Assembly: GCA_903831305.1 (NCBI GenBank)
Contig: CAIKXE010000008.1
Span: 25,105 to 89,104, forward strand
Length of the DNA stretch: 64,000 nt
Direction of reading: 5' to 3'
DNA from: an uncultured bacterium
Lineage (GTDB): Bacteria; Patescibacteriota; Minisyncoccia; Phycocordibacterales; GWA1-40-21
Shown here piece by piece: positions 3,873 to 52,375 of this stretch; within the stretch, counting starts at the first letter, position 1, and every line of letters begins with the position of its first letter. The translations under genes were made by a program, and so were the position numbers. The notes under the pieces were generated by a model. It worked only from the letters and a program-made list of their open reading frames with translations, ran no database searches and was not told the origin of the DNA.

Positions 3873-3949
3873 TTTTGTATTCTAGCACAAAATCAATACC
3901 TTTTAAAGGGTTTTGTAAATATGTATTTTATCCAAAAATCTGCTATTGT

Positions 3950-4618
3950 ATGAGTATGTCAACGCCAGACCAAAACTTATCATATTTAATTAAAAGAAAG
4001 AAAAAAGTTCTTAAAATTTTATCAAAAATTAAGAGATTGTCTTTGTCTCATTCAGATAACGTTATCTTTTATAAAGTAGAGCTAGTTTTGAATAAAAAAC
4101 ATAAGATTGACGAGAGGTACGTTTTAGATCTTGAAGAAGATCATATAATAAATATATTTCAAAAAAGTAATCTGTTTAAGGTATTAGACAGCTACCAAAA
4201 TGATCAGAATGATCAAGTATATGAAATCAAAATTGATCCTGTTCAGTTTAGGCAGTCGGAGGAATTTTTATTGCAGGAATTAGATCTATCTGACACTCTT
4301 AAAGAGTATAGCGGTGATTCAATAGCGAGTCTGAAATTTAATATAGCAAAAGACAACAAAAGAGATATGACGATCATTGTTAATAATAATGAGAATTTAT
4401 CTATTGAGGTTGATAGGACTGATACGTACTGGGGGTTATTACTTGAGATAGCCAAAAATAAATCAATAGACTACGATAGCTCCCATAAAAACTTTATAAA
4501 TTATATAAACAGTGGAGTGGATTGTGCATTTTATTCCAAGGATAAATATAAACCAACTAAAATCTTGGGGAGAAAAAATGGAATAATTAAATTTTTAATT
4601 CCTGTTAAGTTAAAATAG
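3950..4618 (+). CDS. Hypothetical protein, Lys-rich, divergent from the helicase gene; start chosen at the internal Met MSMSTPDQ (the ORF is open from 3860)
   Basis: ORF track 3860..4618. The AT-rich upstream is better explained as promoter. A hairpin terminator AGCCTTATAAAATAAGGCT lies at ~4652-4672. Confidence 0.45.
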   Translation: MSMSTPDQNLSYLIKRKKKVLKILSKIKRLSLSHSDNVIFYKVELVLNKKHKIDERYVLDLEEDHIINIFQKSNLFKVLDSYQNDQNDQVYEIKIDPVQFRQSEEFLLQELDLSDTLKEYSGDSIASLKFNIAKDNKRDMTIIVNNNENLSIEVDRTDTYWGLLLEIAKNKSIDYDSSHKNFINYINSGVDCAFYSKDKYKPTKILGRKNGIIKFLIPVKLK

Positions 4619-5252
4619 GGGTTGGGGAAAGTTGGGAATGTGAATAACTTTAATAGCCTTATAAAATAAGGCTATTTTGTATTACTTATTTTAATCCCAA
4701 CCTAGTACCAACCGACGCACTCTGTAAAAATAGTGCTATGGAACTAAGTAATAGCGACATAGCCAAACTTCGGGAAGTGCTCCAAAAATCAATTGGAGAT
4801 TATTCTGATCAGCTATCTGATCAAGAAGTTGGCGAACTCGGTATTACCTTACTCCAAACAACCGCAGTTATTCTTAAAGCTAAATGTGATTTAAGAAAAA
4901 TAGCTACAGTAAATTAACAACGGAATATTTGGGTGGCTATCAGCGCATCCACCAGAAGATAACTTGGGCTGAAAAATTAGGTACTTTCTTAAAAATCCAG
5001 GAGATTATGAGGTTTCGCCCCGAAATGGGACTTTTACTCCTCCTGGCTCTAGAAGAGAGCGCGTAATAACTGATGATGATACGGTCAGTGCAAACAACTC
5101 CGCACCAGTTGTTAAATCGGTTACCCTATAAGTCCGACTGACGCGCCCCTCAACATAAATATCCTACATAATAAAAAACATTGTTGTAGATATTATCTAG
5201 AGCAAAAAAGGGTGCATATTTAATAAAACAAACACTAATTAACACTAATAAT

Positions 5253-5666
5253 ATGAAGCAAACAAAAATAAGACACAATTTTGAGTATCATCAGTTTATC
5301 CTTTGGATTAGCCTACCAAAAGAACTTCGCGAGCCAAAAACTCAAGCGGAATTATCAAAACACTTTAGGGTTGGCCAAGATACTCTTTCAGAGTGGAAAA
5401 AGAAGACAGGATTCTGGGAGGAGGTTGCTAGTCAAAGAAAGAATTGGAGTAAGGAAAAGACATCAGAAGTTGTATATGCACTTTATAAAAAAGCGGTCGA
5501 TATAGGAGGTGCACCAGAAGTTAAGTTATGGTTTCAGATTATGGAGGGTTGGTCTGAAAGATTGATTTCATTTACTGAAAAAGAAAACCCTCTCGCGAAC
5601 TTAACAGATCAGGAGTTAGACGACCTAATTAAAAAACAAAAAGCACGTTTTTCTAAAACAGACTAA
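5253..5666 (+). CDS. Small HTH-domain protein, possibly phage terminase small-subunit-like or transposase-type HTH
   Basis: Helix-turn-helix-like segment TQAELSKHFRVGQDTLSEWKKK. It sits in the cargo next to the serine recombinase. Confidence 0.35.
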   Translation: MKQTKIRHNFEYHQFILWISLPKELREPKTQAELSKHFRVGQDTLSEWKKKTGFWEEVASQRKNWSKEKTSEVVYALYKKAVDIGGAPEVKLWFQIMEGWSERLISFTEKENPLANLTDQELDDLIKKQKARFSKTD

Positions 5667-5678
5667 GTAATAAAAAAA

Positions 5679-5963
5679 ATGAAAAGTATAGAAAAAGAGT
5701 TTGATAAAACTCAAAGTAAAAATCCAAACTGGTCATCATATACTGTCTTTGCAAGTACAGTTCGGGGTAAAAAATATAGCGAGGATAGACTTAAAAGAAT
5801 GTTTAAAAAACTTGTAAGTAAAGATGATTATGCAAACAAGGATAAAAAGGGGCTTATAAAAAACCTATGCGCTCTCAATATATGCCCGAAGCGTACAGAA
5901 AACAGGGGTAAATTTGCTCTAGACAACACGAAAGATGAAAAGACGATAAATGGTATTATTTAA
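5679..5963 (+). CDS. Hypothetical small basic protein (94 aa)
   Basis: ORF with AT-rich codon usage consistent with the backbone; no recognisable motif. Confidence 0.35.
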   Translation: MKSIEKEFDKTQSKNPNWSSYTVFASTVRGKKYSEDRLKRMFKKLVSKDDYANKDKKGLIKNLCALNICPKRTENRGKFALDNTKDEKTINGII

Positions 5964-6008
5964 ACAAAATTAAGTAACAAACAACAAAATTATTGCTATA
6001 ATGCATAT

Positions 6009-6077
6009 GCCAGACCATAAAGTTAAAATATTCAAATTTGTTTATAGAAGCGGAGTAATAACTCACTATGGTCTGGC
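6009..6077. repeat. Inverted repeat GCCAGACCATA / TATGGTCTGGC (11-bp arms, ~47-nt spacer) in the promoter region of the serine recombinase
   Basis: Arms read directly at 6009-6019 and 6067-6077. Confidence 0.5.
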
Positions 6078-6133
6078 GATCTTAGGTATAGTTATTGCTC
6101 CACTTTTGTATATAAAAATAATAAATTAAAACA

Positions 6134-7837
6134 ATGAAAAAAATACTGAATGATAAAATAATATACGGTGCTTATTTCCGTAAGTCATCTGAATCAGAGG
6201 ATAGGCAAGCTCAATCTATCCCAGATCAAATTAGGGAGGTTGAAACTATTGCGCAAAGAGAAAATATTCAAATTGGTATAAAGTTTCCCGGAGAGTCACA
6301 GTCTGCTTTTACAATTGGAAGACCTATTTTTGCGGATCTTGTAAATAAAATAATGGATCAGGAAATAAACGCAATTGTTGTTTGGCACCCAAACAGACTT
6401 GCGAGAAATCCTGTTGATGCCGGAATGATTCTTTATCTTTTGGATGAGGGTAAATTAAAAGTTATACAAACTCCTAGTAGAGCATATTATAATACTGCGA
6501 GTGATAAATTTATGCTTCAACTTGAGTTTAGTATGTCAAAGAAAGACAGTGACGATAAGAGTGAAGCAGTTATTAGAGGTTTAGAGGGAAGAGCAATTAG
6601 AGGTCTTCCAAGCGGAGTTTCAAAAGTTGGTTTTCTCAATGACACGACAGAAGAAAAAGGAAAAAGAAAATGGAACGTAGATAAAATTCGTTTTCCACTG
6701 GTACAACAACTTCTTAAGAAAATGCTTACTGGAAAATATTCTCCAGCACAAATATACAGATATGCAAAAGACGATTTAAAACTTACAACTACACCTAGAA
6801 AAAAAGTTGGAGGTAAAGCGATATCTTTTTCGTACATTTATTTATTATTAAGAGATCCTATTTATGCAGGTTTTTTCTTTTATGACGAGAAAAGATATGA
6901 ATTAGACGATAGACTTCCACGTGCTATAACCGAAGACGAATATTGGAAAATACAGACAATACTTGGATTAAAAGGAAGACCTCACCCCTCAAAACACGAG
7001 GGAACATATAATGATTTTCTTGTTTGTAAAAAGTGTAATGGACATATGTCACCTGATTTTAAGTTTCAACTTATATGTTCTGTTTGTAGACATAAATTTT
7101 CTTATAGAAACACGGTTGAGTGTCCTAAATGCAAAACAAAAATTGAACAAATGATTGACCCTGTATATTGTTCATATGTATATTATTACTGTATTAACAA
7201 CAAAAAACACCGGACTGTCTGTCAAAATGACGGTATTGAGGAAAAGAAACTTCAACAAGCTCTAGTTCTAAGTCTTAAAGAAAAAGTATCTATTTCTAAA
7301 GATTTATCTAAGTGGTGTATTGATAATATCTACAAACTTAAAGATATTGAACTTAACGAGAAACTATCAATTAAAAACAATCTTGATCAAGAAGAACTGT
7401 CTTTGAAAACGAAATTAAAAAAAATAACTCTAGCTCGTATTTCTCGCGAAGTCTCTTTAGAAGAAGAACAAACTTATATTGAACTTGAAAATGAGATAAG
7501 GGCTGAATTGGTTAGTTTGAATATTCAAAAAGGTAATATGAATGTTGAGTGGTTTTCTGAAGCCTCTAAAGATTTTGATCTTATGTCGGAAATAGTTAAT
7601 GTACTTGAAAATGGAACGACAGAGCAAAAAAAGGAAACTCTGTATGCTTTTGGTTCGAACCTGACAGTTAAAGACAAAATAGTTAGTGTTCACAACAAAA
7701 AATCAATAGAACTCTTTTCAGAGTTCCTAGAACGGGCACAGATAGAAAACAAAGCGTTCGAACCTAGAAATACCCTTGCTACAAAAGAAAAAACAGAGGT
7801 TTTTGCCTCTGTAATTCCTATCCTGCTCCGTGGGTAG
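6134..7837 (+). CDS. Large serine recombinase (serine integrase; resolvase-type catalytic domain, recombinase domain and Zn-ribbon)
   Basis: N-terminus YGAYFRKSSESEDRQAQSIPDQ carries the nucleophilic Ser context. Further support from VVWHPNRLARN and a Cys-rich ribbon CKKCNGH...CSVCRH...CPKCKTK. Size is 567 aa. The last 12 nt, including the TAG stop, overlap the 3' end of tRNA-Asn. Confidence 0.8.
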   Translation: MKKILNDKIIYGAYFRKSSESEDRQAQSIPDQIREVETIAQRENIQIGIKFPGESQSAFTIGRPIFADLVNKIMDQEINAIVVWHPNRLARNPVDAGMILYLLDEGKLKVIQTPSRAYYNTASDKFMLQLEFSMSKKDSDDKSEAVIRGLEGRAIRGLPSGVSKVGFLNDTTEEKGKRKWNVDKIRFPLVQQLLKKMLTGKYSPAQIYRYAKDDLKLTTTPRKKVGGKAISFSYIYLLLRDPIYAGFFFYDEKRYELDDRLPRAITEDEYWKIQTILGLKGRPHPSKHEGTYNDFLVCKKCNGHMSPDFKFQLICSVCRHKFSYRNTVECPKCKTKIEQMIDPVYCSYVYYYCINNKKHRTVCQNDGIEEKKLQQALVLSLKEKVSISKDLSKWCIDNIYKLKDIELNEKLSIKNNLDQEELSLKTKLKKITLARISREVSLEEEQTYIELENEIRAELVSLNIQKGNMNVEWFSEASKDFDLMSEIVNVLENGTTEQKKETLYAFGSNLTVKDKIVSVHNKKSIELFSEFLERAQIENKAFEPRNTLATKEKTEVFASVIPILLRG

Positions 7838-7897
7838 GGATCGAACCTACGACCAATCGCTTAACAGGCGACCGCTCTACCGCTGAGCTACCACGGA
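7826..7897 (-). tRNA. tRNA-Asn (anticodon GTT)
   Basis: Manual fold gives acceptor UCCGUGG/CCACGGA, D-arm GCUC-AGCGGUA-GAGC, anticodon arm GUCGC-CUGUUAA-GCGAU, T-loop UUCGAUC and discriminator G. Confidence 0.85.
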
Positions 7898-7979
7898 ATA
7901 TATTGGACCACTCTATCCTAGCAGGAATTTATGAAAAAATAAAGGGGTCTAAGATAGTCATTTGTGTTATACTTTCTAG

Positions 7980-8717
7980 ATGAAAAAAGAAAATATTAAA
8001 AAGATAGTCAAAGATAAATATAAAGAAATAGCTATCAGTGGTGCTTCATGCGGATGTTCATGCAATAGAGCAAAAAATATTTCAAAAAGTATTGGTTATT
8101 CTGAAGAGGAATTAAAAATAGTTGGTACGGCAAATCTTGGTCTTGGTTGTGGTAATCCGTTAGCTTATGGCAAGATTAAGGAGGGGGATGTGGTTCTGGA
8201 TTTAGGCTCTGGTGCTGGTATAGATTCTATTCTTGCGGCTGAAAAAGTTGGGAGTAAAGGCAAGGTGATCGGAGTGGATATGACTGAAGAAATGATAGAA
8301 AGGGCCAAAGAAAATGCTAAAAAATACAATGTAAAGAATGTAGAATTTCTCTTGGGAGAAATAGAGCATCTTCCTTTAGTGGATAATTCAGTTGATACTA
8401 TAATTACTAATTGTGTTATTAATTTAACGCCAGACAAAGCCAAGACATTTAGTGAAGCATACCGAGTGCTCAAACCAGGGGGAAAGATCTACCTTTCGGA
8501 TATTGTTTTGCTTGAAGACTTATCAAAGGAACAAAGAAATGACAAAGATTTATTATCTGGCTGTGTGGCTGGAGCTTTATTAAAGGAAGACTATCTTAAT
8601 AAAATAGAAAAAGCGGGTTTCGAAGTGAGGATTTTACATGAAAACAAGGAGATTAGTAAAAAGCAATATAATGGAATTGCTCTAGAAAGTATAATGGTTG
8701 AACTGTCTAAAAATTAA
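7980..8717 (+). CDS. SAM-dependent methyltransferase, ArsM-like (arsenite methyltransferase family)
   Basis: SAM-binding motif [11 protein letters not shown], the sequence [12 protein letters not shown], and N-terminal Cys cluster [10 protein letters not shown]. Confidence 0.6.
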
Positions 8718-8734
8718 ATAGACTATATTTTGGT

Positions 8735-8762
8735 TGACAAAATCACTGGATTAGCTAACATA
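8735..8762 (+). promoter_or_regulatory. Sigma70-like promoter TTGACA-16-TAACAT driving the GC-rich unit at 8770-9090
   Basis: Read directly from ttggTTGACAaaatcactggattagcTAACATatag. Confidence 0.4.
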
Positions 8763-8809
8763 TAGTCAGAACCTAGGTCCCTTACAAGAGTGGTGAGATG
8801 GAGGTGCGT

Positions 8810-9025
8810 ATGTCCAAGAAGCACAGAACGCGTAAACGGTGTGGGCGGATCGGCGGAATTGAGCGCCGGGTGTTCTCTTCCTACATGTGGTGCTTTACTA
8901 TGAACACGTGGGTGTTTGTACAGGTGGATGAGGAAAAGGGCAACTGTTGCACCTGCCCAAATTGCCCGTTCAGTCCGGCCTATGTAAGGCCGGAAGTTGA
9001 AACGGACGCCCGGCTTACCGCCTGA
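8810..9025 (+). CDS. Small basic Cys-rich ORF (71 aa, MSKKHRTRKRCGRIGG...CCTCPNCP) inside a GC-rich transcript; could instead be part of a structured ncRNA
   Basis: Strong SD GGAGGTG 4-5 nt before the ATG. The region is ~58% GC against an AT-rich backbone. Flanked by a promoter and a terminator. Confidence 0.3.
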   Translation: MSKKHRTRKRCGRIGGIERRVFSSYMWCFTMNTWVFVQVDEEKGNCCTCPNCPFSPAYVRPEVETDARLTA

Positions 9026-9048
9026 GTACCGCCCGGCCACCGCCGTAC

Positions 9049-9088
9049 AGCCCGCCTGGTTCCTATACCAGCGGGCTCTTTGTTTGTG
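9049..9088 (+). terminator. Intrinsic terminator (AGCCCGCCUGG...CCAGCGGGCU followed by CUUUGUUUGUG)
   Basis: GC-rich hairpin followed by a U-rich tract. Confidence 0.6.
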
Positions 9089-9119
9089 CAAATATTTGAT
9101 GCACGCTATACTTCATGGT

Positions 9120-10127
9120 ATGAGAAATGAAGATTTACTTTTGGATTTGATAAAAATAAACTCTGAATCTGGGAACGAAAAAGAGATAGGGGATTTTATT
9201 TTTAATTTATTAACGGAGAAGGGTTTCCAGGTGGAGAAGCAGATAGTGGATGAGAAGGCCGGAACCTTTAATATCTTTGCATCTGTGGGCAAGCCCAAGG
9301 TGGTATTTAGCAATCATATGGACACGGTGCCACCACAAATAGAAGTAAAAGAAGAAGATGGTAAAATATATGGTCGGGGGGCTTGTGATGCTAAGTCTCA
9401 ATTAGCGGCCGCTTTATGTGCGGCTTTTTTGGCCAGGGAAAAAGATCTGACGGATTTTGGTCTAGCTTACACCATACAAGAAGAATTGGATCTATTAGGG
9501 GCGGAAAAGATCCTGGACATATTGCCGGACGGAGTAGAACTGATTGTAGCGGGGGAACCAACGGAGCTTGAACTGGTTCGGGGTCACAATGGTATTATTT
9601 GTTTTGAACTTTTAGCTCATGGAAAAACAGCTCATGGGGCGCTACCAGAGAAGGGAATAAATGCAATTGAATTACTGATGGAGGATTTAACCGTGATTCG
9701 TAATACAGATTTTGGTGAGGACAAAATTTTGGGCAAAAATATTTTAAATATTGCTCAAATATCTGGTGGTATTGCAGATAATGTGGTGCCCGATGAAGCT
9801 AAAGCTATCATATCTTTTAGAACTGTTTCAGATTTTGAAAAGGTGATTGAAAAATTAAAGTCTGTTGTTAAAGGGGAAGTTAAAATTACTCTAAAATACA
9901 ATCCATTTTTTAATGATAAAGCTGAAGATTTGGCTAAGAAGATTGGAATAAAGACCAAGACCGTCAGATATTTTACCGAGGCGTCTATTTTACGCCAAAA
10001 GGGTAACCCGGTGATTCTTGGCGCGGGGAGCATTAAGGAGGCGCATAGTGCCACTGAATTTGTTTCTATTGCAGAGTATAATAAATTGATTGAGCTTTAT
10101 TTGGAAATTATCAAACAGTATAATTAG
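9120..10127 (+). CDS. M20 family metallopeptidase (ArgE/DapE-type deacylase)
   Basis: Contains FSNHMDTVPP and GRGACDAKSQLAAALCA. Start set at MRNEDLLLDLIK; the ORF track starts at 8997, inside the GC-rich upstream unit. Confidence 0.7.
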   Translation: MRNEDLLLDLIKINSESGNEKEIGDFIFNLLTEKGFQVEKQIVDEKAGTFNIFASVGKPKVVFSNHMDTVPPQIEVKEEDGKIYGRGACDAKSQLAAALCAAFLAREKDLTDFGLAYTIQEELDLLGAEKILDILPDGVELIVAGEPTELELVRGHNGIICFELLAHGKTAHGALPEKGINAIELLMEDLTVIRNTDFGEDKILGKNILNIAQISGGIADNVVPDEAKAIISFRTVSDFEKVIEKLKSVVKGEVKITLKYNPFFNDKAEDLAKKIGIKTKTVRYFTEASILRQKGNPVILGAGSIKEAHSATEFVSIAEYNKLIELYLEIIKQYN

Positions 10128-10141
10128 TTCATAAATTTACT

Positions 10142-10150
10142 TGTGGATAA
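10142..10150 (+). promoter_or_regulatory. Perfect DnaA-box 9-mer (TGTGGATAA = TTATCCACA) within the conserved 14-mer TTGTGGATAACTTT
   Basis: Exact match; the same 14-mer recurs at ~35955 and ~47791. Confidence 0.5.
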
Positions 10151-10262
10151 CTTTTTGCTTTTTCTCTATTAAGGCATTATGCTGATGAGCAGACTTGTTT
10201 AGGTGCGAGGTGGTTTTTTAAGCCACGGGTTCACCTTGTTTGAGGAAGAATCAGGAGGAAAG

Positions 10263-10610
10263 ATGATGAAGATTTGGATGCTCTGGAGTGTGGTTCTCGG
10301 GCTCGTCCTGGCCTCAGTATCTGTGGTGGGGGAAGGACCAGAGACAAATGAAAGGGACTTCTACCTCAGGCTCGTGGGCGGGCCGGTGGTGGAAACCGGA
10401 TCTGGCCTGGTGACAGAGCCGATCCTTGGGCTGTATGCCTTGCTTTTGGGTCAGAACCAAACGTCGGTTCGGCGCCAGCGCGAGCGGTCACGTGATGCTC
10501 TTGGCGGTCCGGACAAGAACCGTCGGCAATCACCGCCATCGCACGAGCTCTCACTCGGCGGGTACGGCCAGTGCCGGCAATCCCAGACCTATGGTCAGTT
10601 TGGTCGTTGA
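10263..10610 (+). CDS. Small secreted/membrane-anchored protein (signal peptide MMKIWMLWSVVLGLVLASVSVVG), GC-rich
   Basis: SD GGAGGA precedes the ATG. Hydrophobic N-terminus. Codons have high GC3, unlike the backbone. Confidence 0.5.
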   Translation: MMKIWMLWSVVLGLVLASVSVVGEGPETNERDFYLRLVGGPVVETGSGLVTEPILGLYALLLGQNQTSVRRQRERSRDALGGPDKNRRQSPPSHELSLGGYGQCRQSQTYGQFGR

Positions 10611-10640
10611 ACACGGTCAACTCTGACCAAGTCATAAACG

Positions 10641-10672
10641 CGCGGACCCCCCTCGGGTCCGGGCGTTTTTTC
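10641..10672 (+). terminator. Intrinsic terminator CGGACCC-CCCTC-GGGTCCG followed by T-run
   Basis: Hairpin followed by TTTTTT. Confidence 0.65.
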
Positions 10673-10787
10673 TTGTTAAATTTTTAGTATACAAAATAGT
10701 CGTTTGGTGCTAGGCTTTAGCCAGATGCTCTTCGTCACTATTTGTTAGTAAGTGTTGGTAGAAGGAACAAGAAACGGGAGAACGGTC

Positions 10788-11915
10788 ATGAAGATTCTGG
10801 TGATTGCAGACACGCACGACATCCCAGACTGGGTCGTCCGGTGCATCGTCGAACTCGGGCAGAAGTGGGGAGTGGAGCTGGTCATACACTGTGGGGATAT
10901 TATCCCCGAGCATGTCAGCAACGAACTCTTCAGCAATCTGCCGGTCATCTGTGCCATCGTGAAGAATCAGAAGGACGACCCAGTCTTCGGTGTGGACAAG
11001 CCCGTCGGCTGGACTCTGACCCGGTCTGAGGATCGTGTTCGTACACTCACGAATGACATGGTGGTCTACGTGGGGCATCAGCGCCCGCTGGACTACCTCC
11101 GGGCCACGGAGGAGAAGTTCAACGCTATCCTCATGGACCTGCGGCAGACCTTTGACGGCCTGCGCTACGTCTTCGGGGGTCACACCCATTTCCAGGCCTA
11201 CAAGCAAGGACAGTTGGTTACCCTCGTCAATCCCGGTGCCGTCAAGGACGCGATTGGCTGGGGCTACGAGTATGCGCTCGTGGACACGGAAACAGGGAAA
11301 GTCATCTTCAGTCGTGTCCTGCCGACCCCGGATAGCCGTGAGATCTTCACGGTCGGTGTGATCTCGGATACTCTGGATATCACCGAACGTGATGCCAAGT
11401 ATTGGTCCCTGCTTGCTCGTGAGTTGAAGGAGGGGGGAGTGAGCCACCTGATCATTTGTGGCAACATGCACCTTACGGACATCGGTCGGTCCGAGCTTGC
11501 TGGCCTCACCGTCCACTATGCTATCCGGAGTGATCAGTACAGCCGTCATCGGGCTATGCAAGAAGGTGGTGTCATCCCGGCGAACTGGCAGGTGATTGCG
11601 CTTGAGGACCTGGACAAAGGGGCGGTGGTGGACATCAACGGTTACCGCTTCTACGTCCAGCTGGATCTCGGCCTGGAGTACATGCAACTCAGCGAAGTGG
11701 GTATGGACTCCAAGGCTATGGAGATCCGGCGGTTGCACCCCGAGACGGAGTTCGTCCTCTGCGGTTTCACTCGAGATGCCCTTCTGATGGAAGGAGAGCA
11801 GGCCGTCACCATCAACCCTGGGGATACGAACACGGACCGGGCCTACGTGACCATCCAACTGCCGAAGCGCGAGATCACCTTTGATCACGTGCCGGTGGAA
11901 GCTTTGCCACAGTAA
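10788..11915 (+). CDS. Calcineurin-like metallophosphoesterase with tandem MPP domains (second copy degenerate), GC-rich
   Basis: MPP motifs ILVIADTHD, HCGDI and GHTHF. Second repeat is VGVISDTLD...ICGNMH. The long antisense ORF 10710..11888 is the usual high-GC artefact. Confidence 0.7.
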   Translation: MKILVIADTHDIPDWVVRCIVELGQKWGVELVIHCGDIIPEHVSNELFSNLPVICAIVKNQKDDPVFGVDKPVGWTLTRSEDRVRTLTNDMVVYVGHQRPLDYLRATEEKFNAILMDLRQTFDGLRYVFGGHTHFQAYKQGQLVTLVNPGAVKDAIGWGYEYALVDTETGKVIFSRVLPTPDSREIFTVGVISDTLDITERDAKYWSLLARELKEGGVSHLIICGNMHLTDIGRSELAGLTVHYAIRSDQYSRHRAMQEGGVIPANWQVIALEDLDKGAVVDINGYRFYVQLDLGLEYMQLSEVGMDSKAMEIRRLHPETEFVLCGFTRDALLMEGEQAVTINPGDTNTDRAYVTIQLPKREITFDHVPVEALPQ

Positions 11916-11948
11916 GCAAGTAGTAAAGAAAGGAGTTCTTGAATCAGT

Positions 11949-11992
11949 GAGGGTGGGTGTGCCATGTGGGCACCCACCCTCTTTTTGTTTTT
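11949..11992 (+). terminator. Intrinsic terminator (GAGGGUGGGUG...CACCCACCCUC followed by UUUUUGUUUUU)
   Basis: Long GC hairpin followed by a T-run. Confidence 0.7.
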
Positions 11993-12045
11993 AATTATTT
12001 TTATATTAAATAGCTTTTTTCTAAAAAAATGCTATAATATATTTC

Positions 12046-12534
12046 ATGATTAAGATGAAATATTACAAGCAAAATACTATCATTTCTTGTGGGCCAGTAG
12101 TCCTGCAGATGATTTTTCATTATTATGGTAAATATTTTAGTGAAGAGACTTTGACAAACAAGCTAAGGCCAAACAGTGATGTCGGTACACCACATTATCG
12201 GATGATTAACTTGGCTACTTCTGAAGGATTTTATGTTTATGCTAACGAAGGCTCGTCACTTTATGAGATTGCCTATTTTGTCAATGAAGGTATACCAGTC
12301 ATTGTTCATTTTATCGAGCCAGACACGGAGGATGGTCATTATGCGGTAGTGGTGGGGGTGCAGAAGAAAAATGTAGTATTAAATGATCCCTGGAATGGAG
12401 AAAAGTTTAAAATGGATAAAGCTGAGTTTGAAAAGAGATGGGTCAGTCTAGACGGTAAGCACAAAAGGTGGATTATGGCGGTTTCTGACACGGATGTGCA
12501 TTTTGGTAAGCAATATTTGCCTAATAAAGCCTAA
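12046..12534 (+). CDS. Peptidase C39-like (papain-fold cysteine peptidase) domain protein
   Basis: Catalytic Cys context SCGPVVLQMIFHYYG and a downstream HYAVVVG His. AT-rich codon usage like the backbone. Confidence 0.55.
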   Translation: MIKMKYYKQNTIISCGPVVLQMIFHYYGKYFSEETLTNKLRPNSDVGTPHYRMINLATSEGFYVYANEGSSLYEIAYFVNEGIPVIVHFIEPDTEDGHYAVVVGVQKKNVVLNDPWNGEKFKMDKAEFEKRWVSLDGKHKRWIMAVSDTDVHFGKQYLPNKA

Positions 12535-12578
12535 AAGTCAGTAAAATGGCTCAGAATAGGGGATTTGTCAAATTACTA

Positions 12579-12607
12579 TTGACTTTTACTGTATAATTTG
12601 CTATAGT
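12579..12607 (+). promoter_or_regulatory. Sigma70-like promoter TTGACT-17-TATAGT followed by a GC hairpin/U-tract leader upstream of the GC-rich gene at 12680
   Basis: Read from ttgacttttactgtataatttgctatagt; leader hairpin GGAGACCGGGUGGUUUCC followed by UUGUUUUUG. Confidence 0.4.
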
Positions 12608-12679
12608 AGTAAATAGATAGGAGACCGGGTGGTTTCCTTGTTTTTGTGTAAAGTTCGTTGTCAGAAAGGGTAGAAAGAG

Positions 12680-12943
12680 ATGAAGAAAAGTGATCTGTGG
12701 CTGTTGCTGGTGGTTGCACTCGTGGTGGCGGTGTCCTTTGTGGCACTGCACCGGATGCCGATCACACCCGTGGAGCCCAGGAAGTCGCCGATGGAGAAGG
12801 TCTCCCCGGCACCCGTGAAGGATCTGGGTCCGAAGGTCCCCAAGAAGGTCTTGGGTAACCCGAACGAGCCAAGTGTCAGTGTCGCCAACAAAGGGAAGGG
12901 GTATACGGAAGTGCGGACACGGTTGTCCGTCAGTATCGAGTGA
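12680..12943 (+). CDS. Small membrane/secreted protein (87 aa), GC-rich
   Basis: N-terminal TM/signal segment LWLLLVVALVVAVSFVAL; GC-rich codons. Confidence 0.5.
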   Translation: MKKSDLWLLLVVALVVAVSFVALHRMPITPVEPRKSPMEKVSPAPVKDLGPKVPKKVLGNPNEPSVSVANKGKGYTEVRTRLSVSIE

Positions 12944-13003
12944 ATCAAGAATGTCAGTTCGAAGCGTCCTGAAAGAAAAAGTGTAGAAAGAGGAGATGGT
13001 GAG

Positions 13004-14065
13004 ATGAAGACGAAGATTCTGTCTACGGTTCTCGTGATGTTCGGTCTCGCATCGGCCAACTGGGCGGCATCGGTGGTGGTACCCTCGACGACGGAGCCGG
13101 TGGTTGAGTCCTGGATTCGGCCACTCGTTTCCAAAGCGGTGATGAGGTCATACCTCGTCGAGCGGTCCGTACAAGTGTACGTGGACACATTCGGTGAGGG
13201 AGTGCTGGATCAGAGTGCTGATGGACTTCAGCTCATCGGCAAGGGTGCTGACGAACTCTGTGATTTGGTTGCTGACCAGGTCATCACCTTCAAGGTGGTG
13301 GATGGTCGGGAGGATCAGGTTGGTCAGACCGTCCAGATGTCTGACCAGCTTGGCAACGCGACTTTCCTAGGTTGGAGAGAAGTGCACCTTGACCGAGTCA
13401 ATGGAGGGCTCGTGGTGATGGGTTCTGATGCCATTTCCCTTCAAATGAGTGATAGGGTGATGGTGGAGGTACCGGCGGATATCATCTGGGTCAATGTCTT
13501 GACCCGTGATGAATCTGGCAATGTGGTCGGTGGGTTATATTGCTCCATTTCCAAAATGAATGAGCAGTATTACCTCGAGTTTCCGACCACTGCGTGCGGT
13601 GATTCCTTTGCCCCTGGTTACTACGGTGAACTTACGGCGCAGAGACGGACCAGTGGTGGCGGATATATGACTTCGGTCTATAATCTGTCCACTGGTGAGG
13701 AGTTGCCCAGCACAGACGTCAGCATGGTTATCTCACCGTCGATTGAGGGGGTTAAGGTGCTCGCCGTAGACTCGGATATCATCGAGATCCTACCGAGCAC
13801 TGGTGGAGTTGGTATGAACACCACGTTCATCCTGACTGTAACCAAAAAGATGGAAGTCATCACTAAAGCCAAAACCTCGGAAGGGGAATTGGCAGTCGGG
13901 TGCTTCATCAAGGCAGTGCTGGGCGAGGCGGGCTCCGCTTACGTCTCATCACCGTCAGTGACTCTTCTCCCTGGCAAGTATCATATCCAGTTCGCTTGGA
14001 GTAAGTTCCACGAACTGGGTGAGCGTGCCGAGGGGTGGGATTACTACGACAACGGCAAGGGCTGA
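13004..14065 (+). CDS. Secreted protein of unknown function (353 aa, signal peptide MKTKILSTVLVMFGLASANWAA), GC-rich
   Basis: SD AGAGGAG precedes the ATG. Signal peptide. High GC3. Confidence 0.55.
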   Translation: MKTKILSTVLVMFGLASANWAASVVVPSTTEPVVESWIRPLVSKAVMRSYLVERSVQVYVDTFGEGVLDQSADGLQLIGKGADELCDLVADQVITFKVVDGREDQVGQTVQMSDQLGNATFLGWREVHLDRVNGGLVVMGSDAISLQMSDRVMVEVPADIIWVNVLTRDESGNVVGGLYCSISKMNEQYYLEFPTTACGDSFAPGYYGELTAQRRTSGGGYMTSVYNLSTGEELPSTDVSMVISPSIEGVKVLAVDSDIIEILPSTGGVGMNTTFILTVTKKMEVITKAKTSEGELAVGCFIKAVLGEAGSAYVSSPSVTLLPGKYHIQFAWSKFHELGERAEGWDYYDNGKG

Positions 14066-14083
14066 CGCTCACGCCGAAGTCTC

Positions 14084-14124
14084 AGAGGCGGTCTTGGGGT
14101 TTACCCTGGGGCCGCCTCTTTTTG
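14084..14124 (+). terminator. Intrinsic terminator AGAGGCGG...CCGCCUCU followed by UUUUUG
   Basis: Hairpin followed by a T-run. Confidence 0.7.
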
Positions 14125-14193
14125 TATCTAAATTTTGGTATTGCATTTAATTAAAAAGTAAGCTATACTCTTTTTTGTTAATCAAATACATAT

Positions 14194-14352
14194 ATGTCAC
14201 AAGATCAATTAATCAAATTATCCTGTAAAACCTGCAAAAGGACTAATTATTGGTCCCGCAAGAACAAAAAGAAAGTTGAGCGCAAAATCGAGCTCAAGAA
14301 GTTTTGTAAATGGTGCAAGAAAAATACTATTCATAAAGAAAGCAAAAAATAG
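14194..14352 (+). CDS. rpmG: 50S ribosomal protein L33 (52 aa; not in ORF track because <60 aa)
   Basis: MSQDQLIKLSCKTCKRTNYWSRKNKKKVERKIELKKFCKWCKKNTIHKESKK matches the L33 Cys4 zinc-ribbon pattern. Confidence 0.8.
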   Translation: MSQDQLIKLSCKTCKRTNYWSRKNKKKVERKIELKKFCKWCKKNTIHKESKK

Positions 14353-14376
14353 TCCCAGACGGGGCTATTTTTGTTG

Positions 14377-14395
14377 GCGGGGGATGTAGGAATCG
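14377..14395. repeat. 19-bp direct repeat of the tRNA-Trp 3' end (GCGGGGGATGTAGGAATCG), 153 bp upstream of the intact copy at 14530-14548. The intervening segment also carries the inverted copy TTCGATTCCTACAT at 14491-14504
   Basis: Exact 19/19 identity read by eye. Confidence 0.65.
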
Positions 14396-14530
14396 CTTCG
14401 CATTCTCCCTCGACTAAATTTTCGCCGTCGCTCAAATTTGTCTGGGCACCGGCTCACGGCTTCGCCTGCTGGCTCGGCATCGTTCCGCCGTTCGATTCCT
14501 ACATTAAAAATCTAATAAATTATATTTTTG

Positions 14531-14601
14531 CGGGGGATGTAGGAATCGAACCTACACTAAAGCGTTTGGAGTGCCTTGTGATACCATTTCACTAATCCCC
14601 C
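14531..14601 (-). tRNA. tRNA-Trp (anticodon CCA)
   Basis: Fold gives acceptor GGGGGAU/AUCCCCC, D-arm GUGA-AAUGGUA-UCAC, anticodon loop CUCCAAA, T-arm GUAGG-UUCGAUU-CCUAC and discriminator G. Confidence 0.8.
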
Positions 14602-14641
14602 CTGCTTGCAAATACTAGCACAAAATAAGTTTTAAATAAAC

Positions 14642-15550
14642 CTATATCTTCTTTTTCATATCACCGAGGATTTTTTCAGTAGTCTTGGGGCCGATTAGAT
14701 ACCAGTGGATATTTTTATTTTTTTTGAACCAGGTTTTTTGACGGCGGGCATATTGCCAGATTTTGGAATTCAGTTCATTTATCATCTGCTCCTCATTAAT
14801 CTTCCCGGTTAAATATCTGGCTAAGTATCTGTATTCCAGACCCAAGCCTTCCATCCGCTTCCAGCTAAGGCCTTGCTTATGTAACTCCTCCGCCTCCTTT
14901 ACCATCCCACTCTCCATTCGCGCTTTAAGGCGAATAAGGATGCGGTCTTTGAGAACCTGGTCCGGGACCATGAGGCCAATCTGAAAAGCTTCATAAAGCG
15001 GATCAGATTTGACCGCTGGTACTGCACCAAGCGCGGTGGCTATTTCAATAGCGCGGATGATTTTTCTTTTATTCTTAACATCAATTGTTTTGACGATATT
15101 TTTATCAAGCTTTTGTAAGATAAGTAGTAGTTGTTCGCAATTTTTTGGCTCCAGTTTTTCTCTCAATTTTCCATTTGGTAATACTTCGGGCCAAGTAATA
15201 TTGTTTATCACGGCGTCAATATAAAAACCGGTACCACCGCAAATTATTGGAAGTTTACCTCGCCCTAAAATATCCGCAATTATTTTTTGGGCTTGGATTT
15301 TATATTTGGAGACATTGTAAATGGACTTGGGACTCACAATGTCCAACATATGGTGGGGAATACCACGCATCTCTTTTTTAGTGATTTTTCCGGTGCCTAA
15401 ATCTAAGCCCTTGTAGACCTGACGGGAATCAGCGGAAATCACTTCACCATCAAACTGCTGGGCAAGTGTAACCGCCAAGTCACTTTTCCCCGTGGCTGTG
15501 GGACCAAGAATAACCAAGACTTTTGGTTTAGATATCGTCATATTTTTCAT
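14642..15550 (-). CDS. miaA: tRNA dimethylallyltransferase MiaA
   Basis: P-loop ILGPTATGKSDLAVTLA and DSRQVYKGLDLGTGK. The ORF track 5' extension overlaps tRNA-Leu, so the start was moved to the Met adjacent to the tRNA (Met at 15550 or 15541). Confidence 0.8.
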   Translation of the reverse strand: MKNMTISKPKVLVILGPTATGKSDLAVTLAQQFDGEVISADSRQVYKGLDLGTGKITKKEMRGIPHHMLDIVSPKSIYNVSKYKIQAQKIIADILGRGKLPIICGGTGFYIDAVINNITWPEVLPNGKLREKLEPKNCEQLLLILQKLDKNIVKTIDVKNKRKIIRAIEIATALGAVPAVKSDPLYEAFQIGLMVPDQVLKDRILIRLKARMESGMVKEAEELHKQGLSWKRMEGLGLEYRYLARYLTGKINEEQMINELNSKIWQYARRQKTWFKKNKNIHWYLIGPKTTEKILGDMKKKI

Positions 15551-20540: not shown

Positions 20541-20576
20541 TTTTTTGCATCTGCCTTTTAAATATATTTATAATGT

Positions 20577-21002: not shown

Positions 21003-21034
21003 ACATTTATTTTTGAAAGTTAATATTGAATATA

Positions 21035-39423: not shown

Positions 39424-39915
39424 ATGAGTAAGTTCATTGCAATGCTGACCGTCTTGGTTGCCTTGGTGGCGACCGTGTCGGCACAGGATCTGGAGATCGC
39501 TAAGTTCCAGATCCAGAACCATGACATTACTGTAGAGGTCATGAAACCCAGACTTGCCGCAATCTCACAGCACTGGGGACGGCCAGTTGTGACCGGTGTT
39601 GTGACGATCGTCATTCATAACCAGATGGAGATCGTCAGTGTCCAGAGTAACTGGAACGGAGAGGAAGGTGACGGAAGTCGCTTCTCGTACACCTTGGTCT
39701 ATCGGTTGAAGGGTGTGACGGTCGGTGAGGCACACCTTACATCATACTCATTGAGTCTCTTCAAGTTCTCGTCAACAAGTAAAGACTGTGTTGACGACTT
39801 GTGGATCACCCCGATGGGAGTGGTGCCGGAGGACGATATTGTCCGATTCCGGTCTGCCGAAGTTGGGGAGGATATCCATAACGGTACTAATCCTCGCAAG
39901 TTTCTGAAGAAGTAA
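39424..39915 (+). CDS. Small secreted protein (signal peptide MSKFIAMLTVLVALVATVSAQD), GC-rich
   Basis: SD GGGAAG precedes the ATG. GC-rich codons; ~95-nt GC-rich leader. Confidence 0.55.
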   Translation: MSKFIAMLTVLVALVATVSAQDLEIAKFQIQNHDITVEVMKPRLAAISQHWGRPVVTGVVTIVIHNQMEIVSVQSNWNGEEGDGSRFSYTLVYRLKGVTVGEAHLTSYSLSLFKFSSTSKDCVDDLWITPMGVVPEDDIVRFRSAEVGEDIHNGTNPRKFLKK

Positions 39916-50748: not shown

Positions 50749-51225
50749 ATGTTGGACAATGTGAAGGTCGGTCAGCACGTGATTATTTATGGTCTGGAGC
50801 AAAAGTACTACGGGGTCGGAGCAGAGGTCGTTTCTGAGGCATACAGTTGTGTTGTACATGAGGTACCAACACAAGTTGTGGCGGTCAAAGTCTTTTATCA
50901 AGAGTGGGGTCTCTTCTCTAATAATGGGGAGTGGCATGAAACGATTTTGATTATTAGTATCCATCAAATGAAGCCGGATACTTACCATGCCTTTGAAAAG
51001 AAAAGGCTAAAGATGAAGTTCGGTGGGTATTGGTCCACTGAATTACTGGCTCAACCTTTGAATCGGGAAGCAGAATGCGCCTTTTGCGGTAACCGGGTTC
51101 ATGTCAGGATTGAGATGAATCACTCGGGCTGTATTCGACAGTACGATGTCTGCCGTCCATGTGCCAAGCGCTGGGATGGCGTTTGGTCTGACTGCCCACC
51201 GGAGAAAAAGGTCAAGGCTGTCTGA
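50749..51225 (+). CDS. Hypothetical Cys-rich protein (C-terminal CAFCGN...CRPCAKRW), GC-enriched
   Basis: SD AAGGAG precedes the ATG. Composition differs from the backbone. Confidence 0.45.
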   Translation: MLDNVKVGQHVIIYGLEQKYYGVGAEVVSEAYSCVVHEVPTQVVAVKVFYQEWGLFSNNGEWHETILIISIHQMKPDTYHAFEKKRLKMKFGGYWSTELLAQPLNREAECAFCGNRVHVRIEMNHSGCIRQYDVCRPCAKRWDGVWSDCPPEKKVKAV

Positions 51226-51955: not shown

Positions 51956-52375
51956 ATGAACTCTCCAGTCGTGGTAGGTGCAAGGCGGGTGCTGTACCGG
52001 GGTAAGATCACCAAAGGTCCCTCGTTGCACTCTCTGATCGTGTCACTAACATTCGTTCAGACCCTCAATGGTTGGATGGAGATTCCGGTAACGTTCGGTA
52101 TTGACCCTATCGTCACCGGGAGTGCTGGGGACTTTTCCTGGAACATCTCGGCCTTCTGGATGGTCGTCCATTCATTGGGTCGCGAGGATGGTGATTACGT
52201 CAACTGGAAGATCGTGGGAGAACCAGAAAGGCGTGAGTCAGCTCAAACCATACTTCGGGCTTTCGGTGTCTCTTACGAGGGGCAACGGATACCACGAATT
52301 CGGTTTGAGATTGAGTATTCTACCTCAGGCCAGGCAGGCCGGTCTGGAGAAGTGGAGGTCTGTATTTACGACTGA
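51956..52375 (+). CDS. Hypothetical GC-rich protein (139 aa) with a ~100-nt GC-rich structured leader
   Basis: SD AAAGGGG precedes the ATG. High GC3. Confidence 0.45.
   Translation: MNSPVVVGARRVLYRGKITKGPSLHSLIVSLTFVQTLNGWMEIPVTFGIDPIVTGSAGDFSWNISAFWMVVHSLGREDGDYVNWKIVGEPERRESAQTILRAFGVSYEGQRIPRIRFEIEYSTSGQAGRSGEVEVCIYD

Follow-up and report, generated by a model that had tools for sequence, protein, structure and literature searches.

Old GC-rich, SD-led transcription units interleaved with AT-rich peptidase genes on a Patescibacteria chromosome

Introduction

How do short, sharply GC-rich transcription units come to lie among AT-rich genes of a bacterial chromosome, and what keeps them different from their neighbours? 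The question arises in the window, that is, the whole 64 kb stretch of DNA analysed here (40.5% GC), for which the sequence-only reading had proposed that secreted-effector-like cargo was recently gained by horizontal transfer from a high-GC donor, perhaps a host or episymbiotic partner. Our analysis shows that the GC-rich segments constitute four transcription units with five genes, forming a lineage-specific accessory cluster on an AT-rich CPR/Patescibacteria chromosome. AT-rich genes for M20 and C39 peptidases alternate with the units, and L33, tRNA-Trp, MiaA and ParB lie next to the cluster. Genes and signals given with coordinates below lie on the + strand.

Composition of the GC-rich segments

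Windowed GC and per-gene GC3 bear out the claimed GC-rich, high-GC3 character of the segments. GC is 0.51 in island 1 (8731-9150; about 0.55-0.57 in its core), 0.56 in island 2 (10181-11990) and 0.53 in island 3 (12621-14170). The five island ORFs have GC3 values of 0.63-0.76, including 0.655 in the 115-aa ORF (10263-10610), 0.739 in the metallophosphoesterase (10788-11915), 0.761 in the 87-aa ORF (12680-12943) and 0.633 in the 353-aa ORF (13004-14065), against a backbone mean of 0.388 (sd 0.081; 54 other genes of the window). The composition-normalised dinucleotide signature, delta*, reaches 190-209 x10^-3 in the 1.5-1.8 kb islands versus 56-59 x10^-3 in backbone windows of the same size, 0 of 300 of which score as high; the expected deviation holds for these larger islands but not for the short island taken alone (8765-9090), whose 181 vs 121 x10^-3 is reached by 9% of windows and is not significant.

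Amino-acid usage also differs between units and backbone, and the GC excess is global, extending to every codon class, the amino acids and the UTRs, while the islands of different lineages have a signature in common. The boundaries are sharp and match the transcription units: the C39 and M20 genes lie ~70-145 bp from GC-rich units, C39 having one ~130 bp away on both sides, yet both genes are AT-rich. The AT-rich, host-like C39 gene previously described as interrupting the islands is indeed such (GC 0.38), and the M20 gene interrupts them too; long antisense ORFs are likewise present (392, 175 and 122 aa). In GC, dinucleotides, amino acids and SD-led starts, these data support the view of the segments as self-contained expression units foreign in composition to the backbone.

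Genes and signals of the cluster

The first unit starts with a sigma70-like promoter at 8734..8761 (TTGACA-16-TAACAT; 10/12 matches in the promoter scan), whose TTGACA and -10 region the relative L017 retains. It precedes a GC-rich gene for a small 4-Cys, zinc-ribbon-like protein of 71 aa (8810..9025), with the SD GGAGGTG 3 nt upstream of 8810 and an alternative start at 8798 that would yield 75 aa. BLASTP retrieves two copies in L017 (E=7e-12 and 4e-8) and one in L020 (9e-6), and the four Cys and an FS motif are invariant; no Rfam family matches the segment. Far from being mere GC-rich filler, 8770-9090 is a protein-coding unit for this 4-Cys protein. Its terminator (9049..9077), a GC hairpin running into a T-rich tract, was read from the sequence, is present in the MFE fold and is kept in L017, and a small-Cys paralog of ordinary composition occurs in both L017 and L020. 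The cluster is immediately preceded by a serine recombinase and tRNA-Asn.

The M20 peptidase that follows (9120..10127; Pfam Peptidase_M20, 1.5e-20) is an AT-rich, leaderless backbone gene with TATACT 7 nt before its ATG. Beyond it, the ORF listing gives a 115-aa ORF (10263..10610) that has AGGAGG as its SD and an N-terminus resembling a signal peptide; an intrinsic terminator from the scan closes the unit (10643..10661; 7-bp stem with six GC pairs, then a T-run). This slot between M20 and phosphoesterase is variable: L017 holds an unrelated 190-aa secreted ORF and its second small-Cys gene, and no DNA homology spans the slot. The next unit encodes a two-domain metallophosphoesterase of 375 aa (10788..11915), with a YfcE/MJ0936-like N-domain (Pfam Metallophos_2, 7.6e-20, residues 1-169; PDB 2ahd, E=8e-5) and a C-domain that is a degenerate duplicate with degenerate metal-binding motifs. 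The earlier description of a tandem enzyme holds insofar as the C-half weakly resembles the N-half (E=0.033), but Pfam matches the N-terminal half only. The unit ends in a terminator at 11949..11981, a GC hairpin (GAGGGTGGGTG...CACCCACCCTC) plus T-run read from the sequence.

The C39-type cysteine peptidase gene (12046..12534; Pfam Peptidase_C39, 8.6e-18) is stand-alone, AT-rich and leaderless, with TATAAT 7 nt before the ATG; its product aligns with the ComA peptidase domain (3k8u, E=2.5e-7), including the conserved CGP, HY and DP motifs. Both in the window and in L016, L017 and L019 the gene sits beside the downstream 87-aa/353-aa pair, of which it is a conserved partner. The operon of the pair has a sigma70-like promoter at 12579..12607 (TTGACT-17-TATAGT with TG; 10/12 matches in the scan), whose -10 region is kept in L016, L017 and L019, followed by a conserved 5'-proximal leader hairpin and U-tract (12619..12638) found as a terminator-like scan hit and in the centroid fold. 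Across four lineages, 90.6% of the cells of this hairpin are paired and four of its eight pairs are changed on both sides, and it may serve as a putative mRNA stabiliser or attenuator. The 87-aa protein (12680..12943; GC3 0.76) is membrane-anchored and, in an alignment of five lineages, combines an N-terminal TM segment, a Pro-rich linker and a conserved C-terminal G(Y)TEVR..LSVSIE motif. The 353-aa protein (13004..14065; GC3 0.63) is secreted, mostly β-sandwich and fast-evolving, and its family of 121 representatives was met in CPR-like contexts only. A strong intrinsic terminator from the scan, with a 16-bp stem, closes the operon (14084..14119).

A distinct expression class

Each unit possesses a 60-100-nt leader with an SD and a strong terminator at its end. 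Of the architecture initially proposed, the strong SD sequences are confirmed, as are the GC hairpin terminators (two from the scan and two read from the sequence), and the 115-aa, 87-aa and 353-aa ORFs can be seen to begin with signal-peptide-like or TM segments; a sigma70-like promoter, claimed for every unit, is clear at 8734-8761 and 12579-12607 but not in the other two of the four transcription units. An SD-like motif precedes 8/8 GC-rich units of the window vs 5/51 backbone genes, and the GGAG/GAGG core 5/8 vs 1/51 (p=6e-5). Conversely, a -10 box ending exactly 6 nt before the ATG is found in 15/51 backbone genes (Poisson 2e-8) and 0/8 units. The GC-rich units are thus a distinct expression class within a mostly leaderless backbone, a dichotomy kept in L016, L017 and L019.

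Three further units of the same class lie elsewhere in the window: a 163-aa ORF that has a leader, an SD-like motif and an N-terminus resembling a signal peptide (39424..39915; terminator near 39940-39975; GC3 0.634 on the longer 39367-39915 ORF; mRNA folding z=-4.4), a 158-aa Cys-rich ORF with an AAGGAG SD (50749..51225; GC3 0.516; terminator near 51235-51270) and a 139-aa ORF with leader and SD-like motif (51956..52375; GC3 0.57-0.58; terminator near 52400-52435). Relative to synonymous-codon permutations, CDS folding has a mean z of -2.86 in the units (n=8) and -0.49 in backbone genes (n=9; p=0.013), part of which excess local GC heterogeneity could account for, since the permutation destroys it. 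The folding excess of the units and the leader hairpin with its compensatory changes form a hint at the level of the mRNA.

Conservation in relatives and age

In L017, the alternation recurs at syntenic positions, with a GC of 0.54-0.62 in the units vs 0.33-0.39 in M20, C39 and L33. GC-rich units are also present in L016, L019, L020 and L024, and in L016, L019 and L020 the alternation holds wherever neighbouring genes are included. The five phosphoesterase orthologs range from 0.68 to 0.74 in GC3. Between window and L017, amino-acid identity is 0.78 for the phosphoesterase, 0.81 for M20 and 0.89 for C39, third-position identity is similar for the three, and the phosphoesterase identity ranking across relatives matches that of C39. 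The cluster is thus old and common to these relatives, not a recent import: their orthologous units agree in composition and position, and the divergence of the phosphoesterase has kept pace with that of its neighbours.

The more distant L026 carries a homologous pair that is still GC-enriched (GC 0.52-0.54 and GC3 0.62-0.65; flanks 0.35-0.48) even though core four-fold sites have reached saturation there (mismatch 0.50, the saturation value). This pair has tRNA-Trp and MiaA in its neighbourhood, but its slot with respect to L33 and tRNA-Trp is another one and its identity is no more than 30%; it could reflect independent acquisition instead of vertical descent. As for the wider family, the phosphoesterase has 90 homologs, which belong to CPR wherever a taxon is named (Paceibacterota, Minisyncoccia, Taylorbacteria, Staskawiczbacteria), and those in four other CPR genomes (L012-L015) have host-like composition and GC3; the family is a native one in CPR bacteria.

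Origin and maintenance of the GC-rich state

The explanation we favour, with somewhat better than even confidence, is that these are old transferred units whose GC is held per transcription unit, likeliest by selection on mRNA. An ancestor probably acquired the units by transfer, an event that would account for their foreign signature and their use of SDs; a xenologous origin, whatever its date, is plausible. Since then, the GC-rich state would have been held by a force acting per transcription unit and would be no transient remnant of recent transfer. The likeliest force is selection for stable, highly structured, SD-translated transcripts of envelope and secreted proteins. Selection on mRNA is our leading guess as to what keeps the units GC-rich; the global GC excess would suit a mutational or fixation bias, or a foreign origin, no less than targeted selection.

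Alternatively, slots near tRNA genes may be refilled recurrently from a GC-rich pool circulating among CPR lineages, a scenario we consider unlikely though worth weighing. Exchange does occur in the region, as a recombination breakpoint at tRNA-Trp indicates: in L002, a block of at least 9.3 kb with all units has been exchanged between lineages, with MiaA only 73% identical. The unrelated cassettes in the M20-phosphoesterase slot of window and L017, the other slot of the L026 pair and the island signature common across lineages are also in keeping with replacement. Against it, the phosphoesterase ranks and diverges like its neighbours, no phage, plasmid or IMG/VR relatives that could be a vehicle were found, neither flanking repeats nor integrase sites or mobility genes were found at unit borders, and the GC-rich pool would itself need explaining.

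Rather improbable is a scenario in which the common ancestor received the units once, long ago, from a very GC-rich donor and their composition has since done no more than ameliorate slowly and passively; it would share the foreign signature and SD usage as evidence. On the host clock (M20 and C39 four-fold sites; t=1.42, 95% 0.92-2.54), passive decay to 0.42 would work only if ancestral GC4 was 0.90 to >1.0 when the window and L017 lineages parted. A non-stationary likelihood analysis of 109 four-fold sites, however, fits a decay from a root of 0.93 to pi=0.40 (lnL -315.22) about as well as a stationary 0.71 (-314.85), and in parsimony counts GC-to-AT changes outnumber the reverse (73:21 in the phosphoesterase; also 90:55), although the method is biased that way; unit GC may really be decaying slowly. 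The GC-enriched L026 pair despite saturated core sites, the CPR-native families and the sampled CPR loci, which reach only about 49% GC, argue against passive decay.

GC-biased gene conversion at a recombination hotspot, raising GC locally, would fit the tRNA-Trp breakpoint and the rise in all site classes and UTRs, but conversion tracts would not respect borders that coincide sharply with transcription units and leave C39 and M20 AT-rich, and units of this kind also occur farther off, at 39, 51 and 52 kb; we judge it very improbable. The recent import originally proposed, for which the atypical GC, GC3 and dinucleotide signature, SD-led starts inside a leaderless genome and the serine recombinase and tRNA-Asn upstream might speak, is hardly credible given units that match in composition and position in L016, L017, L019 and L020, a phosphoesterase about as diverged as its AT-rich neighbours (78% vs 81-89% amino-acid identity), the GC-enriched L026 pair, the absence of repeats and mobility genes at unit borders, the CPR taxa of those phosphoesterase homologs that have a taxon name and the CPR-like contexts of the 353-aa family; nor was a high-GC donor identified. 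An assembly chimera joining in reads of a high-GC organism, suggested by the compositional jump alone, is excluded for practical purposes by 10 loci of separate assemblies (ENA, JGI and Logan) that are 100% identical across the span compared, and by the alternation in diverged relatives.

Comparison with known systems

The morons of lambdoid phages are autonomous promoter-ORF-terminator units of deviating composition inserted between conserved genes. The present units resemble them in being self-contained, each with its own terminator and two with a clear promoter of their own, and in lying between conserved genes with a sharply different base composition. However, the locus is outside any prophage, with chromosomal flanks (L33, tRNA-Trp, MiaA, ParB, TopA), no viral relatives were found, and the units, far from being recent additions, also occur in relatives and diverge there together with their surroundings. 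In the Lawrence-Ochman framework, compositionally atypical genomic islands are ameliorating xenologs. The units match these in atypical GC, GC3, codon usage and dinucleotide signature, but their state outlasts divergences over which neutral amelioration should erase most or all of it, and they are single 0.3-1.8 kb transcription units among native genes, not a contiguous block with mobility genes.

Mixed translation initiation is known from leaderless-rich lineages and from SD-poor lineages where a gene subset keeps the SD. The -10 box 6 nt before many backbone ATGs and the leaders and SDs of the units recall such genomes; here, however, the genes with SD-led starts are also those set apart by their GC-rich composition, a coupling for which the literature searched gave no description. 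The C39 locus, in which no bacteriocin-like core peptide was identified, recalls double-glycine processing loci with ComA-type ABC exporters through its ComA-aligned motifs and the small proteins encoded beside it. In contrast to those loci, C39 stands alone at 162 aa without a fused or adjacent ABC transporter, and the small protein encoded next to it begins with a TM anchor instead of a GG leader.

Composition and integrity of the GC-rich units

The window has a mean GC content of 40.5%, above which, in sliding windows, three islands with sharp borders rise at 8731-9150 (GC 0.51, core about 0.55-0.57), 10181-11990 (0.56) and 12621-14170 (0.53). The ORFs at 10263-10610, 10788-11915, 12680-12943 and 13004-14065 have GC3 values of 0.655, 0.739, 0.761 and 0.633, respectively, compared with 0.388 ± 0.081 in the 54 other genes of the window, which bears out the GC-rich, high-GC3 segments described by the sequence-only reading. 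The long antisense ORFs of these segments (including one of 392 aa) and the GC hairpin terminators (9049-9077, 10643-10661, 11949-11981 and 14084-14119) were likewise found; the sigma70-like promoter proposed for each unit is clear in two of the four transcription units (8734-8761 and 12579-12607), which bears out the proposal in part.

The compositional shift is global, extending over codon classes, encoded residues and UTRs. C ends 0.60 of the NNY codons in the units versus 0.23 in the AT-rich backbone genes, G ends 0.70 versus 0.43 of the NNR codons, the CGG share of arginine codons is 0.44 versus 0.17, and FYMINK residues make up 22% versus 32% of the proteins; unit UTRs have 0.40-0.63 GC versus 0.36 in other intergenic DNA. 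The dinucleotide distance delta* (×10^-3, normalised for base composition) is 190-209 for the two main islands versus 56-59 for equally sized backbone windows, a value reached by 0 of 300 such windows, with dinucleotide ratios of 0.71 versus 1.09 for GC and 0.63 versus 0.85 for TA. The dinucleotide signature of the short island at 8765-9090, taken alone, is not significant against the backbone. The window contains three further units of this class (39424-39915, 50749-51225 and 51956-52375), and four other CPR loci contained no comparable GC3 outliers. An AT-rich ORF of 149 aa (51340-51789) lies between two of the GC-rich units and has a G/C-rich near-palindrome on either side (5′, ccctccccttgtcaggggagggg; 3′, ccccctgacaaggggg).

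An assembly chimera with reads of a high-GC organism is refuted: exact-protein look-ups recovered the locus in many ENA, JGI, NCBI and Logan assemblies, and positions 8000-15000 showed 100% DNA identity over the compared span in 10 of the loci retrieved.

Conservation of the units among relatives

One comparison is provided by L017, a MAG contig labelled Candidatus Saccharibacteria, in which a gene for a small four-cysteine protein (GC 0.55) is followed by genes for an M20 peptidase (0.36), a secreted ORF (about 0.6), a second small-Cys paralog (about 0.42), a phosphoesterase (0.56), a C39 peptidase (0.39), proteins of 83 aa (0.54) and 352 aa (0.56), and L33 (0.33). GC-rich units also occur in four other loci (L016, L019, L020 and L024), their positions match those in the window wherever the flanks are present, and GC3 is 0.68-0.74 in 5/5 phosphoesterase orthologs. 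Amino-acid identities between the window and L017 are 0.81 for M20, 0.78 for the phosphoesterase, 0.89 for C39 and 0.98 for L33, and third-position identities of the phosphoesterase and its neighbors are comparable; the phosphoesterase has diverged like its AT-rich neighbors and was therefore inherited together with them. Identities of 0.44 for the small TM protein and 0.56 for the 353-aa protein indicate faster evolution. A genome scan for relatives returned the L017 contig alone, which was already known, a C39-anchored metagenome scan gave no matches, and a word-index protein search returned 4 proteins.

The phosphoesterase family is CPR-native: among its 90 homologs, every source name that carries a taxon is CPR (Paceibacterota, Minisyncoccia, Taylorbacteria, Staskawiczbacteria). 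In four long CPR contigs (L012-L015) the composition of the gene tracks its own genome, with GC3 of 0.30, 0.38 and 0.30 where genome GC is 36-37% and of 0.61 where it is 49%, and its gene neighborhoods differ among the four. The composition is thus a property of the unit and not of the protein family, since the small-Cys paralogs of L017 differ and the phosphoesterase is host-like elsewhere.

These results overturn the recent horizontal acquisition from a high-GC donor that the sequence-only reading had proposed: because same-composition orthologs exist in five relatives, a kind of finding that this reading had itself named as refuting, and the phosphoesterase has co-diverged with its neighbors, recent transfer is refuted, and no high-GC donor was found for the units. 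Recently acquired islands share with the units an atypical composition and signature (GC3, and delta* for the two main islands), but such islands are absent from or different in close relatives, have compositionally matching homologs in a donor, and carry mobility genes or direct repeats at their borders, whereas the window units are present with the same composition in relatives, their phosphoesterase has CPR homologs with host-like GC3 in the four long contigs, and they have neither border feature. No repeats flank the units, and the serine recombinase at 6134-7837 is not at any unit border.

Phage morons are autonomous units of deviating composition, as is the window cluster with its two promoters and four terminators, but they sit in phage or prophage genomes between genes that adjoin each other in related phages, whereas the window units are flanked by chromosomal genes and shared with relatives; a phage or plasmid origin was dismissed, as IMG/VR, INPHARED and PLSDB contained no relatives. 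Integron cassettes combine an attC site at the 3′ end, a promoterless ORF and IntI, whereas the window units have leaders and two clear promoters; their ends share no imperfect inverted repeats, and the only recombinase found in this comparison was the serine recombinase. Diversity-generating retroelements depend on a reverse transcriptase and on paired template and variable repeats, and no TR/VR-like direct repeats were found within the 64-kb window; lacking repeats, DGR, integron and transposon architectures were all set aside.

Gene products of the cluster

The phosphoesterase (10788-11915) consists of two domains. Its N-terminal half matches Pfam Metallophos_2 over residues 1-169 (7.6e-20; 71.9 bits, above the gathering cutoff of 27) and the MJ0936 phosphodiesterase (PDB 2ahd, E=8e-5), to which its DTHD, GD and GHTH motifs can be aligned. 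The C-terminal half resembles the first one weakly (E=0.033) and is a degenerate copy of it, with DTL in place of DTH and GN in place of GD. The protein is distinguished from YfcE/MJ0936 metallophosphoesterases by twice the usual length and a degenerate second domain, and it misses the cutoff of NCBIfam TIGR00040 for the YfcE subfamily (50.2 vs 56.25 bits).

The gene at 12046-12534 encodes a stand-alone C39 cysteine peptidase of 162 aa (Pfam C39, 8.6e-18), in which the CGP, HY and DP motifs, which supply the catalytic residues of this family, line up with those of the ComA peptidase domain (3k8u). It shares the domain and its conserved Cys/His/Asp motifs with C39 double-glycine processing systems, but lacks their fused or adjacent ABC exporter and GG-leader peptide; it lies between the phosphoesterase gene and that of the TM-anchored 87-aa protein, and it scores far under the cutoffs of the NCBIfam ABC-peptidase models. 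The 87-aa product (12680-12943) is membrane-anchored and contains a proline-rich linker and, C-terminally, the conserved motif G(Y)TEVR..LSVSIE, and the 353-aa protein (13004-14065) belongs to a secreted β-sandwich family with 121 representatives. For AF2, an alignment of 4 sequences gave a pLDDT of 46 and one of 30 sequences worked; the latter was too divergent for pattern scanning. The ORF at 10263-10610 has a signal-peptide-like N-terminus, and no relatives beyond strain variants were detected for it. The conserved trio of C39 peptidase, small TM protein and β-sandwich protein suggests a cell-envelope module; none of these results shows the proteins to be effectors, as had been supposed for the cargo.

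The segment 8770-9090 codes for a small protein (71 aa, 8810-9025) with four invariant cysteines and an invariant FS motif, whose likely start at 8810 is preceded by GGAGGTG. In BLASTP it matches both paralogs of L017 and a copy in L020 (E 7e-12 to 9e-6). A structured non-coding RNA was rejected here: chance-level matches aside, no Rfam family matched at gathering or at E<=10, and the four cysteines are kept across paralogs whose DNA has diverged. The folding z is -3.3 on the plus strand, unremarkable for GC-rich coding DNA, and -4.1 on the minus strand. The two paralogs occur in one genome (L017, 1318-1521 and 3537-3719; L020 copy, 187-369), the copy before M20 being GC-rich (0.55) and the one before the phosphoesterase ordinary (about 0.40-0.42); this second copy is missing from the window.

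The units also pose an annotation problem, as they are handled wrongly by gene callers whose training set is the AT-rich backbone. In L009, a public assembly of the locus, a 392-aa antisense ORF (7707-8885, corresponding to window 10710-11888, minus strand) is annotated where the phosphoesterase belongs, and the 115-aa and 87-aa genes are omitted, an artefact that gene calling produces at GC-rich units of an otherwise AT-rich genome.

Expression architecture

Backbone genes and units also differ in their start regions. TANNNT boxes that end exactly 6 nt upstream of the start codon precede 15/51 backbone genes (expected 2.3, Poisson P=2e-8), and boxes that end 5-8 nt upstream precede 23/51, many of these being extended -10 elements of the form TGnTAnAAT. 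Backbone examples include 12030-12045, 40002-40016, 54495-54509 and 56239-56253. With -10 boxes directly before their starts, backbone genes appear predominantly leaderless, as judged from the motif positions. No such box precedes the start in any of the eight GC-rich units (0/8), all of which carry an SD-like motif (8/8 vs 5/51 backbone genes), with a GGAG/GAGG core in 5/8 versus 1/51 (p=6e-5). L016, L017 and L019 keep this dichotomy, which is less marked in L026, a distant relative.

The operon of the 87-aa and 353-aa genes has a 5′-proximal leader hairpin followed by a U-tract (12619-12638), kept in four lineages. In it 90.6% of cells are paired, compared with 50-78% for slid controls, and both sides have changed in 4/8 pairs, so that the four sequences offer modest evidence of a conserved structure. 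Leaders other than 12612-12679 showed no structure beyond shuffles. Relative to synonymous-codon permutations, coding sequences of the units fold more stably, with a mean z of -2.86 (n=8) versus -0.49 in the backbone (n=9; MWU p=0.013), reaching -4.4 in the phosphoesterase and -6.7 in the 353-aa gene. No published description of this GC-rich, SD-led pattern was found in the literature searched.

Probable origin and proposed maintenance of the GC-rich state

The units are real, old and common to relatives, and distinct from the backbone in composition and architecture. They are probably xenologous, having entered an ancestor of the clade. Atypical GC is routinely taken as a sign of recent horizontal transfer, an inference that fails here, where the state is common to diverged relatives and follows transcription-unit borders, and where translation changes along with it from leaderless to Shine-Dalgarno-led. 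The GC-rich state would be held by a force that acts on each transcription unit separately; we consider selection on the mRNA properties of transcripts with a leader and SD-dependent translation to be the likeliest such force.

Recurrent replacement of units from a GC-rich gene pool is a serious rival. The slot between M20 and the phosphoesterase contains a 115-aa cassette in the window versus an unrelated 190-aa gene and the second small-Cys gene in L017. The strain contig L002 is 100% identical to the window over 5256-14601, but identity is about 65% from the first base past tRNA-Trp on into MiaA (breakpoint at window 14601/14602, L002 9346/9347), with MiaA 73% identical in amino acids and a tail of 32% GC versus 41% in the window. 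As identity drops just past tRNA-Trp, the whole block was exchanged recently between diverged lineages, a case of inter-lineage recombination with its breakpoint at the tRNA.

Pure passive amelioration, in which the units simply decay from a higher GC content, is disfavored. Parsimony-polarised changes show a GC-to-AT excess of 73:21, but these counts cannot be relied on: where composition is skewed and sites are near saturation, parsimony scores too many changes from common to rare states. A two-state non-stationary likelihood model on 109 four-fold sites, too small a sample for the purpose, did not separate a stationary state at 0.71 from decay from 0.93 to 0.40. A clock from host genes (M20 and C39 four-fold sites, n=149) gives t=1.42 (95% 0.92-2.54) between the window and L017, under which passive decay toward 0.42 that leaves 0.72 today needs an ancestral GC4 of 0.90 to above 1.0; this would be borderline at most, and for families native to CPR it is implausible. 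In the more distant L026 (amino-acid identity to the window 0.74 for TopA, 0.62 for ParB and 0.54 for MiaA), core four-fold sites are fully saturated, the S/W mismatch of 0.50 being the saturation value. A homologous pair of small-TM and 334-aa genes adjoins tRNA-Trp and MiaA there, with GC of 0.52-0.54 and GC3 of 0.62-0.65, compared with GC3 of 0.35-0.48 in the flanking genes except L33 (0.62). The L026 pair lies on the opposite side of L33 and tRNA-Trp and is 30% identical to that of the window, and may represent an independent acquisition. gBGC at the units does not fit, given their sharp borders.

Returning to selection on mRNA properties, it is possible, though doubtful, that one chromosome contains two gene "dialects", the second actively maintained in its composition over the long term by RNA-level selection. 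The first would be an AT-rich leaderless core, and the second a set of dispersed GC-rich units, SD-translated from highly structured mRNAs, whose products would be envelope or secreted proteins and the phosphoesterase. Such selection might act, for example, on mRNA stability or through an SD-dependent translation channel with regulation of its own, in which case the units would amount to a regulon marked by its composition and not to foreign DNA in decay. To our knowledge, the expression biology of ultra-small CPR bacteria is almost unknown; if the state is actively maintained, a gene-class-specific compositional constraint exists in them, and the cluster would be a marked set of probable surface proteins (C39 peptidase, membrane-anchored small protein, β-sandwich family) that are candidates for the study of episymbiotic contact.

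Other features of the window

The region 390-7897 (about 33% GC) has a dinucleotide signature of its own (delta* 120) and looks like an integrated element; it codes for a 1160-aa SNF2/PLD-nuclease-like helicase, an HTH_Tnp protein and a 567-aa large serine recombinase, the 3′ end of which overlaps tRNA-Asn (7825-7897, minus strand). At 21603-22916 lies a gene for a type IV pilin-like protein (N_methyl and Gly_rich_2) with GGT-rich repeats, which gives a GC peak with a GC skew of 0.4 and GC2 of 0.62, yet a low GC3 (0.31); this island has a different cause from that of the GC-rich units. A 30-nt repeat containing the palindrome AAGTAAGCCATGGCTTACTT occurs three times, about 455 nt apart (20569-20598, 21026-21055 and 21478-21507); an 86-aa ORF and a Cas2/PaaX-like gene (21086-21472) lie between the copies, which could be operators or terminators. 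A 46-nt inverted repeat (19314-19359 and 24478-24523, 83% complementary) flanks a 5.1-kb stretch that includes the Cas2-like, pilin-like and ABC ATPase genes.
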